64,000 nucleotides of DNA from Escherichia coli O157 typing phage 4. The stretch's first letter is position 1; each line of letters opens with the position of its first letter. Location of the stretch: the sequence record KP869102; one strand, written 5' to 3'. The position numbers and the translations under genes were made by a program. The notes under the pieces are model-generated. The model worked only from the letters and a program-made list of their open reading frames with translations. It had not been told where the DNA came from and did no database searches. Of this stretch, positions 11,182 through 63,516 are shown piece by piece.

Positions 11182-11258
11182 TGGTCTCCACGGAGTGATT
11201 CGAACACTCGACCTCCTGATCCCAAATCAGGCGCTCTACCAAGCTGAGCTACGCGGAG
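11182..11258 (-). tRNA. tRNA-Pro (anticodon TGG)
   Basis: Cloverleaf folded by hand: C1-G72 acceptor, T-arm GAGTG-TTCGAAT-CACTC, anticodon loop TTTGGGA, CCA encoded. Confidence 0.75.
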
Positions 11259-11269
11259 TATTCATTATT

Positions 11270-11344
11270 TGGTGGCCCTGGGTGGAATTGAACCACCGTC
11301 TGGCGATTATGAGTCGCTTGCTTGAACCTTCCAGCTACAGGGCC
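11270..11344 (-). tRNA. tRNA-Met/Ile2 (anticodon CAT)
   Basis: Acceptor GGCCCTG/CAGGGCC, T-arm GGTGG-TTCAATT-CCACC, anticodon loop CTCATAA, CCA encoded. Confidence 0.7.
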
Positions 11345-11345
11345 A

Positions 11346-11421
11346 TGGTGCTGATGGCAGGACTTGAACCTGCAACCTATTGATTACAAATCAATTGCAC
11401 TACCAATTGTGCTACATCAGC
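11346..11421 (-). tRNA. tRNA-Thr (anticodon TGT)
   Basis: Perfect acceptor GCTGATG/CATCAGC, T-loop TTCAAGT, anticodon loop TTTGTAA, CCA encoded. Confidence 0.75.
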
Positions 11422-11426
11422 AAAAA

Positions 11427-11517
11427 GGTGCTAGGTGATGGAGTCGAACCACCCGAATCGCAATGATAACAGATTTACAGTCTGCCCCGCTACCCCTACG
11501 GAATTAACTCACCTAAA
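11427..11517 (-). tRNA. tRNA-Tyr-like (anticodon GTA), long variable arm; possibly aberrant
   Basis: Anticodon arm GCAGA-CTGTAAA-TCTGT, T-arm GGTGG-TTCGACT-CCATC, variable hairpin; acceptor stem pairs imperfectly. Confidence 0.45.
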
Positions 11518-11643
11518 TACTAATATTTAAATTCTTTTTAAAATAGCTAGTGTTCTCACCACTAACTATGAGGTATCGGTAAAGTGGTTACCGCCACTTG
11601 CCGAAGATTTACTCTGCTAAAGTAAGCTACATTAAAAAGAACT

Positions 11644-11718
11644 TGGCACCCCGTACTGGACTCGAACCAGTGTCAACGGCTTAGAAGGCCGCTGCTTTAT
11701 CCACTAAGCTAACAGGGC
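11644..11718 (-). tRNA. tRNA-Arg (anticodon TCT)
   Basis: Acceptor with two G-U pairs, T-arm ACTGG-TTCGAGT-CCAGT, anticodon loop CTTCTAA, CCA encoded. Confidence 0.7.
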
Positions 11719-30162: not shown

Positions 30163-30663
30163 ATGGCTCACTTTGTTAGTGAGCCAGAAATGGAGACAGA
30201 TATGAGTAATGTTATGATTCCTAAAAAGACATTTATTTCAGTTACTTTGGATTTCCTATCTACCGTTCCCGGGTTTAACGTTCGCACACGAAACGGTCTC
30301 CGAGCTGCACTCTTTGCCGTAGGGTTTGATTTAAAAAGTATTGATGTTCTTCGTGGAAAAAACGTTCGATGCAAAAATAAGCCAACACATTATCGAAAGG
30401 CAGATGTATTTGCTGGTGTCATGCGTGCAGACTTTAGATACCCGCAAATGTATAACGGTGTAGATATTTTAGATGTAGATAAAGCACCCGGTGAGGCAAT
30501 GCTTGTTCAAGATCTTCCGTATGATATCCCTGTGGAGGATCGTGTTAATGTAAGAAAGTATACAAAACAATCTGAAAAGGCTGAAGATATTCATATTGTT
30601 GATGAACCTTTCAATTTTGAAGATCTGCATCGCCTGGAAAAATTATTCGGTATTGAAAGCTAA
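30163..30663 (+). CDS. hypothetical protein
   Basis: 166-aa ORF. Confidence 0.45.
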   Translation: MAHFVSEPEMETDMSNVMIPKKTFISVTLDFLSTVPGFNVRTRNGLRAALFAVGFDLKSIDVLRGKNVRCKNKPTHYRKADVFAGVMRADFRYPQMYNGVDILDVDKAPGEAMLVQDLPYDIPVEDRVNVRKYTKQSEKAEDIHIVDEPFNFEDLHRLEKLFGIES

Positions 30664-52793: not shown

Positions 52794-52893
52794 NNNNNNN
52801 NNNNNNNNNNNNNNNNNNNNNNNNNNNNNNNNNNNNNNNNNNNNNNNNNNNNNNNNNNNNNNNNNNNNNNNNNNNNNNNNNNNNNNNNNNNNN
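52794..52893. other. assembly gap (run of N)
   Basis: 100 consecutive N. Confidence 0.99.
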
Positions 52894-52944
52894 TTAGTGG
52901 CGGGAAGTTTTCCCGCCTGTGTTTTTAATTATACTTATTGAGAT

Positions 52945-53205
52945 TTACTTGTCAACACTATTTTTTAAATTATTGTGGCGCAAAATGTTTAAAATCTCTT
53001 CAACGTCATCAACACGGCGGCAATTTTTAAACGCTACCAATTGCCCCATGATTTTAATCACTGGGCGGCCTTGCCAGTGCCCCTGGAGAAAGCGCGCCTT
53101 GACTTTATCAGTGGAACTATCACGCCACCAAACGGCCTTGTTATTGCAGTAGTAAAAATTATTCAGGACAATATCAACTTTATCAAAATTTTTTAATTTA
53201 CGCAT
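52945..53205 (-). CDS. hypothetical protein
   Basis: 86-aa minus-strand ORF. Confidence 0.4.
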   Translation of the reverse strand: MRKLKNFDKVDIVLNNFYYCNNKAVWWRDSSTDKVKARFLQGHWQGRPVIKIMGQLVAFKNCRRVDDVEEILNILRHNNLKNSVDK

Positions 53206-53413
53206 AGTGTTTACTCCTTCCTTCTTGCTTTGATGTGGTTAGTATATCCGGACTATTCCAAGGTGTCAAGCTTTAAATAAAATCACTGTCAATGATATTT
53301 TTAACACCATAAAACGGCCCTGGGTGATGTTTTCAGGCTAAGAAAGGGGATTGCATAGGTAGGGGCTTTTGTGGCGTTTGTGGGGCCAACCAGGGGCGCT
53401 ATTCGTAGGATAG

Positions 53414-53442
53414 AAATAAAAAGCCCCGCACAATGGCGGGGC
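53414..53442 (-). terminator. rho-independent terminator
   Basis: On minus strand GCCCCGC-CATTGT-GCGGGGC followed by TTTTTATTT. Confidence 0.55.
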
Positions 53443-53531
53443 GTTGGTTGTTATTTGTCTTTATGGCGGTATCGTTCCGCTTGTCGTTCACGTTCCAAAA
53501 GTAGGCCCGGCAATTTACGATCATAATGATT

Positions 53532-53633
53532 CCNNNNNNNNNNNNNNNNNNNNNNNNNNNNNNNNNNNNNNNNNNNNNNNNNNNNNNNNNNNNNNNNNNN
53601 NNNNNNNNNNNNNNNNNNNNNNNNNNNNNNNNN
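53532..53633. other. assembly gap (run of N)
   Basis: About 100 consecutive N. Confidence 0.99.
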
Positions 53634-53949
53634 TGGCCTGAATCGCCCGGATACGGCGTTTTATAACCTCCTGATCCGTGCAATCGTATCCCCAAAAGTC
53701 TACAATTTTCGCGCCGCCAGCTTTTAAGCGGTATAATGTTTCTTGCATTTTGTAAGCTGGGATCGGTCGCGGTGTTACCTGGTCGCCTTTTTCATCCTTG
53801 TACTTGATTATGTAGTCCTCGTTGTCGTTGAATACCCAAAAAGGGTACTCTGTAAGGGCGTTGCTTTCTTTTTCGTTTTTAGATTGGATCTTGTTTACAA
53901 TTAAAGCCGTAGCAATAGCGCCAATAATAAAACTAGCCCCGCTGATCAT
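53634..53949 (-). CDS. hypothetical protein with N-terminal TM helix, partial (runs into gap)
   Basis: Minus ORF from ATG ~53949; 3-prime end lost in N run. Confidence 0.35.
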
Positions 53950-54024
53950 GTTACTTTCTCCTTTCATTGTGTTGATAAACTATCTTTATAGATGGCCCTG
54001 TTACCAGGACCACCGAAAAAATAA

Positions 54025-54270
54025 CTATTTCACAATGCCTACAAAACAGATCCCGCCTTCACCTATATAGGCAATATCGGTAATTTTATAATTTGTCAAG
54101 ATCCGCGTGTTCAGATCATTAATAAAATCGGTCATCGCGTTGGTGTAGTTGTCTTCCGTGTCTAAGGCATAATCCCAGGTGTAAACCTTTTTACGTCCGA
54201 AGCCTTTTACCATGATACGGGCGCTTTTGGTGTTGGTAGGGGCATAATATTTGGTGATTAGTGCTGCCAT
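54025..54270 (-). CDS. hypothetical protein
   Basis: 81 aa, AGGAG RBS. Confidence 0.4.
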   Translation of the reverse strand: MAALITKYYAPTNTKSARIMVKGFGRKKVYTWDYALDTEDNYTNAMTDFINDLNTRILTNYKITDIAYIGEGGICFVGIVK

Positions 54271-54359
54271 GGTTTTAACTCCTCTGAATTAGTTCAGTGT
54301 TAACAGTATAAAGTTTACTTTATTGATGGCCCTGAAGTCAAGGCCATCTAAAAATAAAC

Positions 54360-54701
54360 TTACTCGTTTTCTTCCAGCTCCGCAAGCTCTTCTTTTGCTT
54401 CTTCTAACTCTGTCTGTAGTTCCTGGTATTCTTCATCGTCCTCAATATCCAGGCTGTCGATGTAGTCGCTAAATCCGCAGCGGTAAGCGATAGGATCTAG
54501 CTCCTTGAGGATACGCGACGGAAGAAAAGAAATGTTTCCGATCATAATTTCGCCGTAGATCTCGTCTAACCATTCATCATAGTTTTCGTCGTACTTGTCC
54601 TCGTCGATTTCAAAGTTATCGATCTTGTTCTCAAGGTCTGCGATCTGTTTTTTCAGCGCGGCGATCTGCATAGCTTTTTCTGCGGCGGTCATAGTAGTCA
54701 T
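54360..54701 (-). CDS. hypothetical acidic coiled-coil protein
   Basis: 113 aa, AAGGAG RBS. Confidence 0.45.
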   Translation of the reverse strand: MTTMTAAEKAMQIAALKKQIADLENKIDNFEIDEDKYDENYDEWLDEIYGEIMIGNISFLPSRILKELDPIAYRCGFSDYIDSLDIEDDEEYQELQTELEEAKEELAELEENE

Positions 54702-54980
54702 GGTGTTTTCTCCTTTTGTGTGCTCTGGGAAGTTTTCCCGTTTACGTGTTTAAGTATAGCGATCTAAGTTAGTTTGTCAATTAAAAATTTAAGAAAAATT
54801 TTGCAAAACTGTTAGCGCTACTCATTAACATTTGCGCCAGGATGTAACCAATGATGCAAACGATAATAGTTACCTTTGTGTGCTGGCGTGTAGTACTCAT
54901 CTTTAAGCCCCCCTTTCCGCTCAACTGTGGTTAGTTTACTTTATTGATGGCCCTGGAGTCAAGGCCATCTAAAAATAAAC

Positions 54981-55376
54981 TCAGTACGTTTTCAGTACTT
55001 TCCCGTCCAACCTGTCTAACTGAATCTCAATAGCTGCAGAAAACCTATTGTAAACCACATCGCCCAAGGAGTCCAGCCAATCTATAACGTTATACACCTG
55101 CTCTTTATTCTTGCAAGTCCGGATCCGTTTCATTACGTAAGACGGATCAATATTAGTACTCCCGTTGTTGTGGTCATGCGCCTGGCCTGCTGCACTGGTT
55201 ATAGATTTTACAACCACCTGAAAGGGCTTTAAGGTGCCTTTTGCGTTCATCTCACGCGCTTTTGCGGCGCGGTTGTTATATGTTACACAACGGCGGCAAA
55301 TGTTGAATAAATGCATGTCAATAATTTTTTCATCGTTTGCCAGTTCGTTCATGATGCGGCGTACGTTCTTATTCAT
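54981..55376 (-). CDS. hypothetical protein
   Basis: 131 aa, AGAGGA RBS. Confidence 0.45.
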   Translation of the reverse strand: MNKNVRRIMNELANDEKIIDMHLFNICRRCVTYNNRAAKAREMNAKGTLKPFQVVVKSITSAAGQAHDHNNGSTNIDPSYVMKRIRTCKNKEQVYNVIDWLDSLGDVVYNRFSAAIEIQLDRLDGKVLKTY

Positions 55377-55460
55377 AGCTTTTCCTCTGTGTTGGCGGGA
55401 TGTTTCCCGCCTTTTGTGTCTAGTTTACTTGAATTTTGCAGCGTGTCAATAATTTTTTTT

Positions 55461-55859
55461 TTATTCGTGGGCACATGTTACAATGTGCTTTTTATAGCCC
55501 AGGTGGGCAGCAAGTGCCGCCAAAAACTCATCTTCATAGATCCAGCCGTTGGCAGTGATCCCCATAGCATTTAATGCGCTCTCAAGTGCTGCGTTAGCTT
55601 TATCATAACCGTGACCGCTCGCCTTGCCGCCAGTATAACCGTACTTATTGTTCTTGTTGTCGTGTATCCAAAAAACGCAGTAGTTAGTGTTACCGCTGGC
55701 GGCGGCATAGTACCGGATCTCCGCTACTTCGTGCAAATTATTATCATCGTCCAGGCCAACCAGATTATAAGCCTTGTAAAATCCACGATCACGGCGGCAG
55801 TTCTTGACATCAGAAAAAGAGAAGTCGGCATTGTCAAAATTAAAGGTTGTGGTTTTCAT
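55461..55859 (-). CDS. hypothetical protein
   Basis: 132-aa ORF. Confidence 0.45.
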   Translation of the reverse strand: MKTTTFNFDNADFSFSDVKNCRRDRGFYKAYNLVGLDDDNNLHEVAEIRYYAAASGNTNYCVFWIHDNKNNKYGYTGGKASGHGYDKANAALESALNAMGITANGWIYEDEFLAALAAHLGYKKHIVTCAHE

Positions 55860-55923
55860 GATTTTATCCTCTTAGTGTCTTTTGTGATTTCAGTATATTT
55901 TGTGTCGGGGCGTATGTCAATAC

Positions 55924-56121
55924 TTATTTTTTATTAAACCAGTGATTGATCTGACCTTTTGTCAGGGCGCAACGATTAAGCTGTTGCAGGGTATAGCTAT
56001 GACCGCGACGAAATTTATAAAGGCCTTGCCCGTTGTTGATGGTTACATCCACCAGGCAAACCACTTGATCGGTGACCACCTGGCGAGTGTTGCGACGTAC
56101 TTTGATTCCGTATGCGTTCAT
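55924..56121 (-). CDS. hypothetical basic protein
   Basis: 65-aa ORF. Confidence 0.35.
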   Translation of the reverse strand: MNAYGIKVRRNTRQVVTDQVVCLVDVTINNGQGLYKFRRGHSYTLQQLNRCALTKGQINHWFNKK

Positions 56122-56544: not shown

Positions 56545-56894
56545 ACAATATACCTATCGAAAGGACGGCAGGCACCGGTGACGGGGGAGGCAACCACCGG
56601 GGATGGACGCTGCATAAAATGAGAACGGTTATCATTATCATTTAAAAATTTATGCAAAAAATCCTTGCTTTCTTTGTCCTGTGTGATACTATAATAACAA
56701 GCCGGGGCAACAGGGGCCGGGAGACAATCACCGGGCCTGCCCGTTATTCTGCAAACGAGAATGATTATCATTCAAAATTCTAAATGAGAACTCCTCGCAT
56801 TTAATAAATTTAATTAGCATGCTAATTACCCTCCGTAACAATTTCCTATAAAACAGTATCCCATAAAATATTTCCATATAGAAATTTTAAAAAT

Positions 56895-57069
56895 CCATTT
56901 CTGAAAACGAAAAATCGATTTCGTCCCCAAAAATTTCAGGTCGAGATCCGGAACGATTTCCAGAAAATCCGATTTAGAAAACGAAAAACAGATCGAGTAC
57001 TGAGAAATTTATCGAGAAAAATTTTCAGAAAATTCAATCTTTGAAACGAAAAACAGATCGAGTACCTGG
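56895..57069. repeat. AT-rich direct repeats (unit ending GAAAACGAAAAACAGATCGAGTAC), two full copies and one partial
   Basis: Near-identical ~44-bp copies at ~56957-57000 and ~57023-57066, partial copy ~56895-56925. Confidence 0.6.
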
Positions 57070-57377
57070 AAAGCTGCACTGCAACTTCAAGATAGTGGTT
57101 AGATTATTACCATAAAAGGTCAAGGGTAAGTGGAGGAAGTTCTAGTAGAAGGATGTGAGCATGTGTGGGAAATCTATAATGGTGGCCTGGAATATGGTGC
57201 AAACGATAGGATGAGTTATTCAGCTTGTCGCGCCTACTCTGAAAAATCCATTTTAGTTTTCGATCCATTTTCTGATTTTCTAAGAATTTTAAAATATCCA
57301 GCCCGGTGAAATATCAAAAGGAGGAAATCCATTTTAGAAATCCCCCTTATACTTGATATGCCAGGAATTTTCAAGTA

Positions 57378-61184: not shown

Positions 61185-61284
61185 NNNNNNNNNNNNNNNN
61201 NNNNNNNNNNNNNNNNNNNNNNNNNNNNNNNNNNNNNNNNNNNNNNNNNNNNNNNNNNNNNNNNNNNNNNNNNNNNNNNNNNNN
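61185..61284. other. assembly gap (run of N)
   Basis: 100 consecutive N. Confidence 0.99.
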
Positions 61285-63027: not shown

Positions 63028-63127
63028 NNNNNNNNNNNNNNNNNNNNNNNNNNNNNNNNNNNNNNNNNNNNNNNNNNNNNNNNNNNNNNNNNNNNNNNNN
63101 NNNNNNNNNNNNNNNNNNNNNNNNNNN
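63028..63127. other. assembly gap (run of N)
   Basis: 100 consecutive N. Confidence 0.99.
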
Positions 63128-63416: not shown

Positions 63417-63516
63417 NNNNNNNNNNNNNNNNNNNNNNNNNNNNNNNNNNNNNNNNNNNNNNNNNNNNNNNNNNNNNNNNNNNNNNNNNNNNNNNNNNNN
63501 NNNNNNNNNNNNNNNN
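63417..63516. other. assembly gap (run of N)
   Basis: 100 consecutive N. Confidence 0.99.

Follow-up and report, generated by a model that had tools for sequence, protein, structure and literature searches.

Two types of promoter and stem-loop cassette in the early gene block of an rV5-like coliphage

The DNA analysed here is a stretch of 64,000 nucleotides from Escherichia coli O157 typing phage 4 (record KP869102), referred to as the window, and our subject is the set of stem-loops that recurs between the minus-strand genes at its positions 52,894 to 55,460. We conclude, with moderate confidence, that this region is part of the early block of small function-unknown genes of an rV5-like phage, and that it carries two versions of a composite promoter and stem-loop cassette. 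In type 1, a GC-rich hairpin would act as a clamp at the 5′ end of the mRNA made from the sigma-70 promoter just upstream of it. In the second type, E2, the stem-loop surrounds a -35 hexamer, and its hairpin would act in RNA that reads through from the upstream gene. Copies of both types in addition serve as repeats for recombination. All functional statements are inferred from sequence geometry and comparative data.

Window positions 52894-56000 are 100% identical to Escherichia phage JES2013 (KC690136; genus Vequintavirus, rV5-like), and about 120 records are related to this part of the window at 90-95% identity. Genome-wide counts were made on the full JES2013 genome taken from the public record, and both window and genome coordinates are used. 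The window contains runs of 100 N each at 52794-52893, 53534-53633, 61185-61284, 63028-63127 and 63417-63516, which are masks that do not preserve length. The run at 52794-52893 replaces 8,876 bp of JES2013 (102938-111813), and the one at 53534-53633 replaces about 142 bp. Thus, the element region begins right after a hidden stretch, which holds 20 annotated small early genes.

Leader hairpins at a fixed distance from early promoters

A preliminary description of this DNA had reported a hairpin family at about 52901, 54726 (shortened) and 55388, each copy followed by a ribosome-binding site in the mRNA orientation. The family is real, and its three members all lie on the minus strand behind near-consensus promoters. 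Site 1, upstream of open reading frame (ORF) 174 at 52899-52917, reads GGCGGGAA-aac-TTCCCGCC in mRNA sense and starts 10 nt past the -10 hexamer of P174, a sigma-70 promoter at 52928-52955 (minus strand; TTGACA-N16-TATAAT, 12/12 consensus positions) that overlaps the 3′ end of ORF175. On the plus strand this hairpin reads GGCGGGAAGTTTTCCCGCC, an exact match to the pattern with 0 matches expected in shuffles, and its mRNA-sense fold reaches -14.6 kcal/mol (z -4.85). Site 2, upstream of ORF179 at 54725-54740 (CGGGAA-aac-TTCCCAG; CTGGGAAGTTTTCCCG on the plus strand), is the shortened copy. It is kept in most aligned orthologues and starts 12 nt past the -10 of P179 (54753-54780, minus; TTGACA-N16-TATACT, 11/12 consensus), the -35 of which is abutted by the ORF180 stop codon. 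Site 3, upstream of ORF181 at 55394-55411 (GGCGGGA-aaca-TCCCGCC; GGCGGGATGTTTCCCGCC on the plus strand), lies 10 nt past the -10 of P181 and 17 nt before the ATG, with an mRNA-sense fold of -14.3 kcal/mol (z -4.5). P181 occupies 55422-55449 on the minus strand (TTGACA-N16-TAAACT, 10/12 consensus) and has an A/T-rich tract upstream. The ribosome-binding sites of sites 2 and 3 are visible in the window; that of site 1 is masked by the run at 52794-52893 and is present in the source genome (...CCGCCACTAACAAAGAAAACAGGAGAAAATATCATG). The promoters P185, P192 and P194 predicted in Table S4 of the rV5 genome paper are the orthologues of P174, P179 and P181; that paper mentions neither the hairpins nor E2. 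As a side observation, the T homopolymer just upstream of the P181 -35 (about 55453-55462) has one T more in the window than in KC690136; this was the first difference in the 7.5-kb third unmasked segment, and the comparison ended there.

Similarity is not limited to the hairpins. Between sites 1 and 2 it is about 70% over 54 nt covering the hairpin, the -10 and the -35, and among sites 1, 2 and 3 it is 68-71% over a shorter stretch of 28 nt. The common order of a type 1 unit is the stop codon of the upstream gene, an A/T-rich tract, TTGACA, 16-17 bp, TAnnnT, about 10 nt (10-12 at sites 1-3) and the hairpin, a GC-rich stem of 5-8 bp, followed by a CA- or A-rich unstructured linker of 15-30 nt, a Shine-Dalgarno sequence and the ATG. 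Seven more promoter-hairpin units and one more E2 were found elsewhere in the genome, all in masked stretches. The type 1 family of JES2013 thus counts about 10 units, nine of them, site 2 included, in the block at genome 106-114.4 kb; the other precedes ORF217.

We also scanned the genome gene by gene, accepting leader hairpins of -6.4 kcal/mol or better. An upstream promoter match was obtained for 58 genes, and 15 of these promoter-linked leaders hold a hairpin. Ten of the 15 begin 8-12 nt past the -10 (binomial P about 1e-4 to 1e-6); eight of these lie in the ORF157-ORF181 block, mostly masked in the window, and two precede ORF136 and ORF217. The distance from the -10 to the ATG is 45-57 nt in leaders with a hairpin and mostly 28-35 nt in those without, as if the hairpin had been inserted into a short leader of standard form. 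A separate hairpin, of different geometry, was seen on the plus strand upstream of ORF102 (window about 30164-30186; JES2013 80308-80330): the 9-bp stem TGGCTCACT-ttgtt-AGTGAGCCA lies 2 nt past the -10 of a promoter with 12/12 consensus positions, and unlike in type 1 its 5′ arm would fall upstream of the transcription start.

E. coli RNA polymerase normally starts 7-8 nt past the -10, and a C-A step is found at this distance in most type 1 units. Based on these two observations the type 1 hairpin is predicted to begin 2-4 nt from the 5′ end of the mRNA. Its fixed distance of about 10 nt downstream of the -10 would place it inside the transcript, and so the GGCGGGAA hairpin is not expected to be part of the promoter, as had been supposed.

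The hairpins are conserved as structures rather than as sequences. In eight related genomes the type 1 stems and their offset are retained and the loops change freely: at site 3 aaca is exchanged for tgt, and upstream of ORF169 and ORF173 the changes lengthen the stem. Between units the arms vary (GGGCC, GGGGAGG, GGGGCAA, GGCGGGAA) with complementarity retained, and the loops include aac, aaca, aaaa, gctaa, gacgt, cct, tgg and atag. In a structure-blind alignment of 31 partly paralogous units from four phages, helix positions pair in 79% of cases compared to 70.5% in shuffles (reached by 0 of 500), and the covariation score is 0.225 compared to 0.137 for shuffles and at most 0.117 for slid partners, exceeding each of the 500 shuffles and every slid control. 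One helix pair alternates between G-C in 16 units and C-G in 6. RNAalifold found no consensus structure in the plain MAFFT alignment of the 31 units, as stems of different length were out of register there; a hand-written helix was scored instead.

Homologous and more stereotyped units occur in the Phapecoctavirus phages ESCO37 and 92CQ, with the form TTGACA-N16-TAnnnT, gtatcacata and GGGCGGGAAAtggTTTCCCGCTC. There, hairpins (GGGCGGGAAAtggTTTCCCGCTC, GGGCGGCAatagTGCCGCTC) stand at nearly every small early gene, about 10 nt past the -10 behind a conserved gtatcaCATA. A hairpin 8-12 nt past the -10 was found at 7 of 12 promoters in ESCO37 (P = 2e-10 against background) and at 7 of 19 in 92CQ (P = 1e-8). 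The Phapecoctavirus-type unit is present in 142 phage records, including Justusliebigvirus and some Vequintavirus. No promoter-hairpin architecture was seen at the four IMG/VR loci scanned (L007, L010, L012, L013) among those with 47-61% identical homologues of ORF179. In a search of the 9.7-kb early block against Rfam at E <= 1, three chance-level matches were returned, and neither type 1 nor E2 was matched.

E2 elements and the gain and loss of gene cassettes

The second element had been described as about 45 bp long, with copies at about 54317 and 54926 and a degenerate third copy at about 53975. All three are present. One canonical copy lies upstream of ORF178 at 54312-54360 (minus strand), directly past the ORF179 stop, and has its -35 TTGACT (54336-54341) in the loop and its -10 TAAACT at 54312-54317. 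The other lies upstream of ORF180 at 54933-54981 (minus), 8 nt from the position first given, directly past the ORF181 stop, and is 98% identical to the ORF178 copy over 49 nt. E2 is 47-49 nt long, and two near-identical copies 621 bp apart are found where 0 are expected by chance. The degenerate copy, upstream of ORF177 at 53975-54026 (minus), is 69% identical to the reference copy; it retains the stem GGTGGTCCTG/CAGGGCCATC and has lost the -35 TTGAC.

The promoter-like pair TTGACT/TAAACT noted earlier in minus orientation is present with the spacing TTGACT-N18-TAAACT (9/12 consensus). It scores comparably to the other promoters and is a plausible promoter, its -35 TTGAC being invariant in the canonical copies of nine genomes. 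The 10-bp stem GAUGGCCUUG/CAGGGCCAUC contains a U-G pair and was detected on the mRNA strand alone. Folding of the ORF178 copy gave -24.3 kcal/mol in sense (z -7.5) compared to -16.4 in antisense, and the ORF180 copy folds with -24.4 kcal/mol (z -6.2). For the degenerate copy the values were -18.7 in sense and -9.5 in antisense, where the structure is lost.

Nine genomes supplied 27 canonical copies. Their stems are almost invariant, as are loop bases one and two (AC); the last two loop bases vary. The loop AC together with the TTG of the stem forms the -35 TTGAC. In nine degenerate copies, which lack the -35, three of the four loop bases vary, and three one-sided stem changes keep the pairing through wobble. 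This pattern, in which the stems and the AC of the -35 are kept, suggests that both the promoter and the RNA stem-loop are under selection. Of 50,697 phage records, 120 contain E2, all of them Vequintavirus and with about three copies per genome, and its sequence is conserved near-totally across genomes that are about 93% identical overall. JES2013 has four copies, all within genome 106-114.4 kb, one of them in a stretch masked in the window.

Comparison of related genomes revealed cassettes that come and go at these elements. The segment between the E2 direct repeats (54361-54933, minus) holds ORF180, P179, hairpin 2 and ORF179, and it is absent from at least four relatives. In phiWec189 and ECP32 the ORF178 leader follows the 3′ end of the ORF181 homologue with only one E2 between them. 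A query with this junction found the same arrangement, matched as a single piece, also in ECP26 and ime, whereas the remaining 56 records listed show an arrangement in two pieces of roughly 920 bp. At type 1, phage YP-6 lacks P174, hairpin 1 and ORF174, with the junction inside the -35 regions of P174 and P173, both of which contain AGTGTTGNCAA. Genome comparison thus shows that cassettes come and go at copies of both types, which serve as direct repeats. Early blocks of this kind are the usual location of anti-defence and host-takeover genes. The E2- and promoter-bounded losses extend repeat-mediated shuffling of early genes, previously described only for T4-type phages, to unrelated myovirus lineages.

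The gene content of the early block varies between close relatives. Several small early genes of JES2013 at about 106.6-108.5 kb (positions 760-2730 of locus L001; masked in the window) share 74-92% nucleotide identity with Phapecoctavirus, Justusliebigvirus and 350-380-kb jumbo coliphages, which suggests that early genes are exchanged between unrelated phages.

Possible functions of the stem-loops

The layout of the type 1 leader resembles that of known stabilising 5′ ends. The leader of T7 gene 10 likewise consists of a 5′ stem-loop, an A-rich linker and a Shine-Dalgarno sequence. Stabilisation of E. coli mRNA by a stem-loop at its 5′ terminus is an established principle (Emory 1992; Bouvet and Belasco 1992; Arnold 1998; all cited in PMC3997798). 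The ompA and papA hairpins lie a few nucleotides from the 5′ end, as is predicted here, and are followed by an unstructured A-rich linker and a Shine-Dalgarno sequence; as in type 1, the stem may change in sequence provided that it still pairs. Unlike these stem-loops, the type 1 hairpin is one component, together with the promoter, of a cassette present in many copies. A type 1 mRNA would begin with 2-4 unpaired bases followed by the GC clamp, which would most likely serve as a 5′-terminal stabiliser or insulator and slow 5′-end-dependent decay by RppH and RNase E. Being unstructured, the CA-rich linker would leave the ribosome-binding site free of pairing. If so, the units would be compact natural parts, a promoter plus a stabilising leader, for expression in E. 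coli. Transcripts from the E2 promoter itself would start downstream of the E2 hairpin, so that the hairpin would be carried only by RNA reading through from the upstream gene. In such RNA it may mark or protect the 3′ end, or attenuate the read-through.

A wider proposal can be made only tentatively. The combination of sigma-70 promoter, 10 nt and GC hairpin might be a dedicated 5′-end armour on many early mRNAs of rV5, phAPEC8 and phi92, evading 5′-end-dependent decay by the host or RNA-directed defence in the first minutes of infection, and E2 might carry small early genes from phage to phage as a mobile recombination cassette, perhaps via mini-circles as in T4-type phages. If this is true, shuffling of the kind known from T4-type phages would be general in large lytic coliphages.

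Several observations weigh against the combined reading of a 5′ clamp, a read-through hairpin and recombination repeats. The literature on Vequintavirus and Phapecoctavirus yielded no transcriptome or start-site data, and the +1 position, and hence the presence of the hairpin in the RNA, is predicted from spacing rules. The fold of site 2 in JES2013 (-5.5 kcal/mol, z -1.07) is no better than that of shuffled sequence, with 35 of 200 shuffles equal. Counts from the 31 type 1 units are not independent events, and the stability of the hairpins differs little between strands, with sense better in 20 units and antisense in 11 (P = 0.07), so that a DNA-level or antisense role keeps some probability. 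Most genuine promoters of JES2013 have no hairpin, so the hairpin is not generally required for early expression. With strict thresholds and the JES2013 early block alone, a hairpin was found at 2 of 9 promoters (P = 0.012), a modest enrichment in a test that is less informative than the gene-anchored analysis. The 18-bp spacer of the E2 promoter is sub-optimal. Finally, two indels analysed in detail, a 351-nt gene next to ORF168 and a 312-nt gene next to ORF159, are not bounded by these repeats.

The rival reading that fares best takes the hairpins as sense-strand terminators or attenuators that damp read-through, so that each small gene uses its own promoter. A role of this kind has been proposed for the stem-loops of the T4-type cassettes discussed below. 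As in intrinsic terminators, these are short GC-rich intergenic hairpins, and several GenBank records label them so: orthologous hairpins are annotated as putative transcriptional terminator in HdK5 and EdH4, and in ASO2A a rho-independent terminator is annotated right before the gene, 11 nt past an annotated promoter. Also in favour, E2 and four hairpins that lack a promoter (ORF161, ORF163, ORF166 and ORF172) stand directly past stop codons. In phage phi1, a stem-loop of comparable cassettes, cloned alone, cut lacZ expression about as much as the rrnB T1 terminator (PMC2839356). However, read in mRNA sense neither hairpins 1-3 nor E2 are followed by a U-tract (the 8 nt past hairpins 1, 3 and E2 contain 0-2 T, and those past hairpins 1 and 3 at most 1), and unlike intrinsic terminators the type 1 hairpin lies between a promoter and its gene, so that efficient termination would silence the gene it precedes. 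Our terminator scan of the minus strand called no promoter-linked leader hairpin, and the search by the rV5 authors with ARNold plus MFOLD did not report these hairpins. Canonical U-tract terminators do exist in the region. One follows ORF176 at 53414-53442 (minus), where GCCCCGC-cattgt-GCGGGGC is followed by TTTTTATTT, in contrast to the leader hairpins; HdK5 and EdH4 carry a terminator annotation at the orthologous position. Because of the lacking U-tract and the position past their own promoter, the GenBank terminator label in HdK5, EdH4 and ASO2A is unlikely to be right, and we consider sense-strand termination unlikely as an explanation of the elements. A terminator about 11 nt past a promoter makes little functional sense, and the public labels are probably a systematic artefact of predictors that look for hairpins only. 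For annotation, a correct reading alters the early transcription units of more than 250 sequenced coliphages that are candidates for therapy.

The preliminary description had also offered RNA processing. E2, and possibly the hairpins, could be RNase III sites as in the T7 early region, with cleavage separating the cistrons and leaving a protective 3′ hairpin on the upstream message. In mRNA sense E2 of JES2013 folds (-24.3 kcal/mol) into a lower and an upper stem of 10 bp each, separated by a 2x3 internal loop and capped by a tetraloop. This two-stem shape resembles T7 R1.1-type sites, which likewise are intercistronic in an early operon. E2 lies between genes expected to be co-transcribed, and the degenerate E2, which lacks the -35, keeps the upper stem in 9 of 9 genomes. 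Yet hairpins 1-3, with stems of 5-8 bp, are far too short where roughly 20 bp are needed, and processing is conceivable only for E2 (10 + 10 bp). There, the A/U-rich lower stem is not maintained: the ORF178 copy carries unpaired substitutions in HdK5, EdH4, A6-1, bov11CS3, CM1, ECP2309 and YP-6. Unlike the T7 sites, E2 has conserved promoter hexamers, and its invariant loop AC is explained by the -35 rather than by a cleavage site. On balance RNase III processing appears improbable.

The hairpins could instead terminate antisense, plus-strand transcription that enters the minus block, with the A-rich promoter start region providing a U-tract on the other strand. A plus-strand gene block does converge on this region, and the plus-strand terminator scan called site 1 (GGCGGGAAGTTTTCCCGCC TGTGTTTTTA), site 3 (GGCGGGATGTTTCCCGCC TTTTGTGTCT) and three more unit hairpins in the masked part. 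By its title, a 2026 preprint describes widespread promoter-terminator coupling in bacteria. Against this role, a usable plus-strand T-tract is present at only about 5 of 14 JES2013 hairpins, and at sites 1 and 3 only among the three sites of the window. The homologous and far more numerous Phapecoctavirus units have the plus-strand tail TATGTGATAC, which is no U-tract, and E2 folds poorly on the plus strand. We therefore hold antisense termination to be quite improbable.

We give the slimmest chance to the idea that the palindromes act as DNA, either as operators through which a dimeric protein of phage or host shuts off the early promoters, or as cruciforms, or as recombination sites. The near-total conservation of E2, the recurrence of the arm GGCGGGAA in two phage subfamilies, the small strand difference in stability of the unit hairpins and the use of the repeats as recombination points would all fit. 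However, the arms differ widely between units with complementarity kept and with compensatory G-C to C-G changes, the loops vary freely, and the G-U pairs required by E2 and its degenerate copy can form in sense RNA only. Further candidates were rejected: chance occurrence of the repeats, as 0 matches are expected in shuffles; a phage-specific promoter motif, as the hexamers are the host consensus; and an antitermination signal like boxB or put, as there is no conserved loop. A small hairpin a short way past an early promoter is also a feature of lambda nut (boxA/boxB) and HK022 put, but the units have no boxA-like motif and no significant Rfam match, and their stems and loops differ from one unit to the next. 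Thus, of the phage-specific promoter family first proposed, what stands is a set of recurrent regulatory elements of the minus-strand early block, whose promoters are near-consensus host sigma-70 promoters, those beside sites 1-3 having already been predicted in rV5.

Comparison with T4-type cassettes and other features of the DNA

The closest known system is the promoter-early stem-loop (PeSL) cassette of the T4-type phages phi1, RB49, PST and nt-1 (Arbiol et al. 2010, PMC2839356; Comeau et al. 2014, PMC4122927). PeSLs couple a GC stem-loop to a strong sigma-70 early promoter; found in hyperplastic regions in front of small orphan genes, they also bring about modular shuffling (PMC2839356, PMC4122927). 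The cassettes described here are alike in the order of stop codon, A/T-rich tract, near-consensus sigma-70 early promoter, GC stem-loop, Shine-Dalgarno sequence and ATG. They also precede small function-unknown genes in a variable early region, their copies are recombination points for cassettes, and they are repeated over tens of bases (E2 with 98% identity over 49 nt, sites 1 and 2 with about 70% over 54 nt). The stem-loop of E2 surrounds the -35 and fits the -35-overlapping subclass, one of five described.

The position of the type 1 stem-loop is different. The phi1 intergenic regions that we examined have the layout of stop codon, A-rich tract, promoter and Shine-Dalgarno sequence (taaAAAAGTTGTTGACAGGGGATC..GATCCCCTATAAT...AGGAGAATCAAAatg), with the stem-loop in the promoter spacer or around the -10, whereas that of type 1 lies about 10 nt past the -10. 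The phi1 stem-loop is therefore absent from the transcript of its own promoter, and the type 1 stem-loop is predicted at the 5′ end of its transcript. We thus think that the cassettes work like PeSLs in layout and recombination, but that the hairpin of type 1 probably does something else, acting as a 5′ clamp instead of an attenuator. The phages belong to unrelated lineages, T4-type phages there and Vequintavirus, Phapecoctavirus and Justusliebigvirus here (Vequintavirinae and Stephanstirmvirinae), and neither type 1 nor E2 has sequence homology to the phi1 PeSLs. By descent the cassettes do not belong to the PeSL family; they are its analogue in a different lineage.

As to the genes of the block, ORF176 (65 amino acids; window about 53450-53640, partly masked; positions 6558-6755 of L001, minus) matches the Pfam family Phage_1_1, the T7 gene 1.1 family, with E = 2e-11. 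Among the nine other proteins around the elements, none has a known function.

The hidden 8.9 kb also contain a non-coding stretch of about 1.8 kb that is rich in short repeats (GTAAACAG, CATGTAAAC and a TGACA series) and looks like an origin or iteron region. Further repeats lie in the 335-nt intergenic region upstream of ORF185, where window positions 56872-57072 hold three tandem-like copies of a unit of about 62 nt that are 61-77% alike, are spaced 65-74 nt apart and contain GAAAACGAAAAACAGATCGAGTAC. Among the database matches, 17-22 GenBank records (MG0656xx) named Campylobacter phage, with C. jejuni as host, are 93-98% identical to rV5-like coliphages over the region of the elements and are probably mislabelled or contaminant genomes. 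Elsewhere in the window, four tRNA genes are clustered on the minus strand at 11185-11718, annotated in the record as Pro, Met, Thr and Arg; in a search of the whole window at gathering thresholds, four tRNAs were the only Rfam matches.

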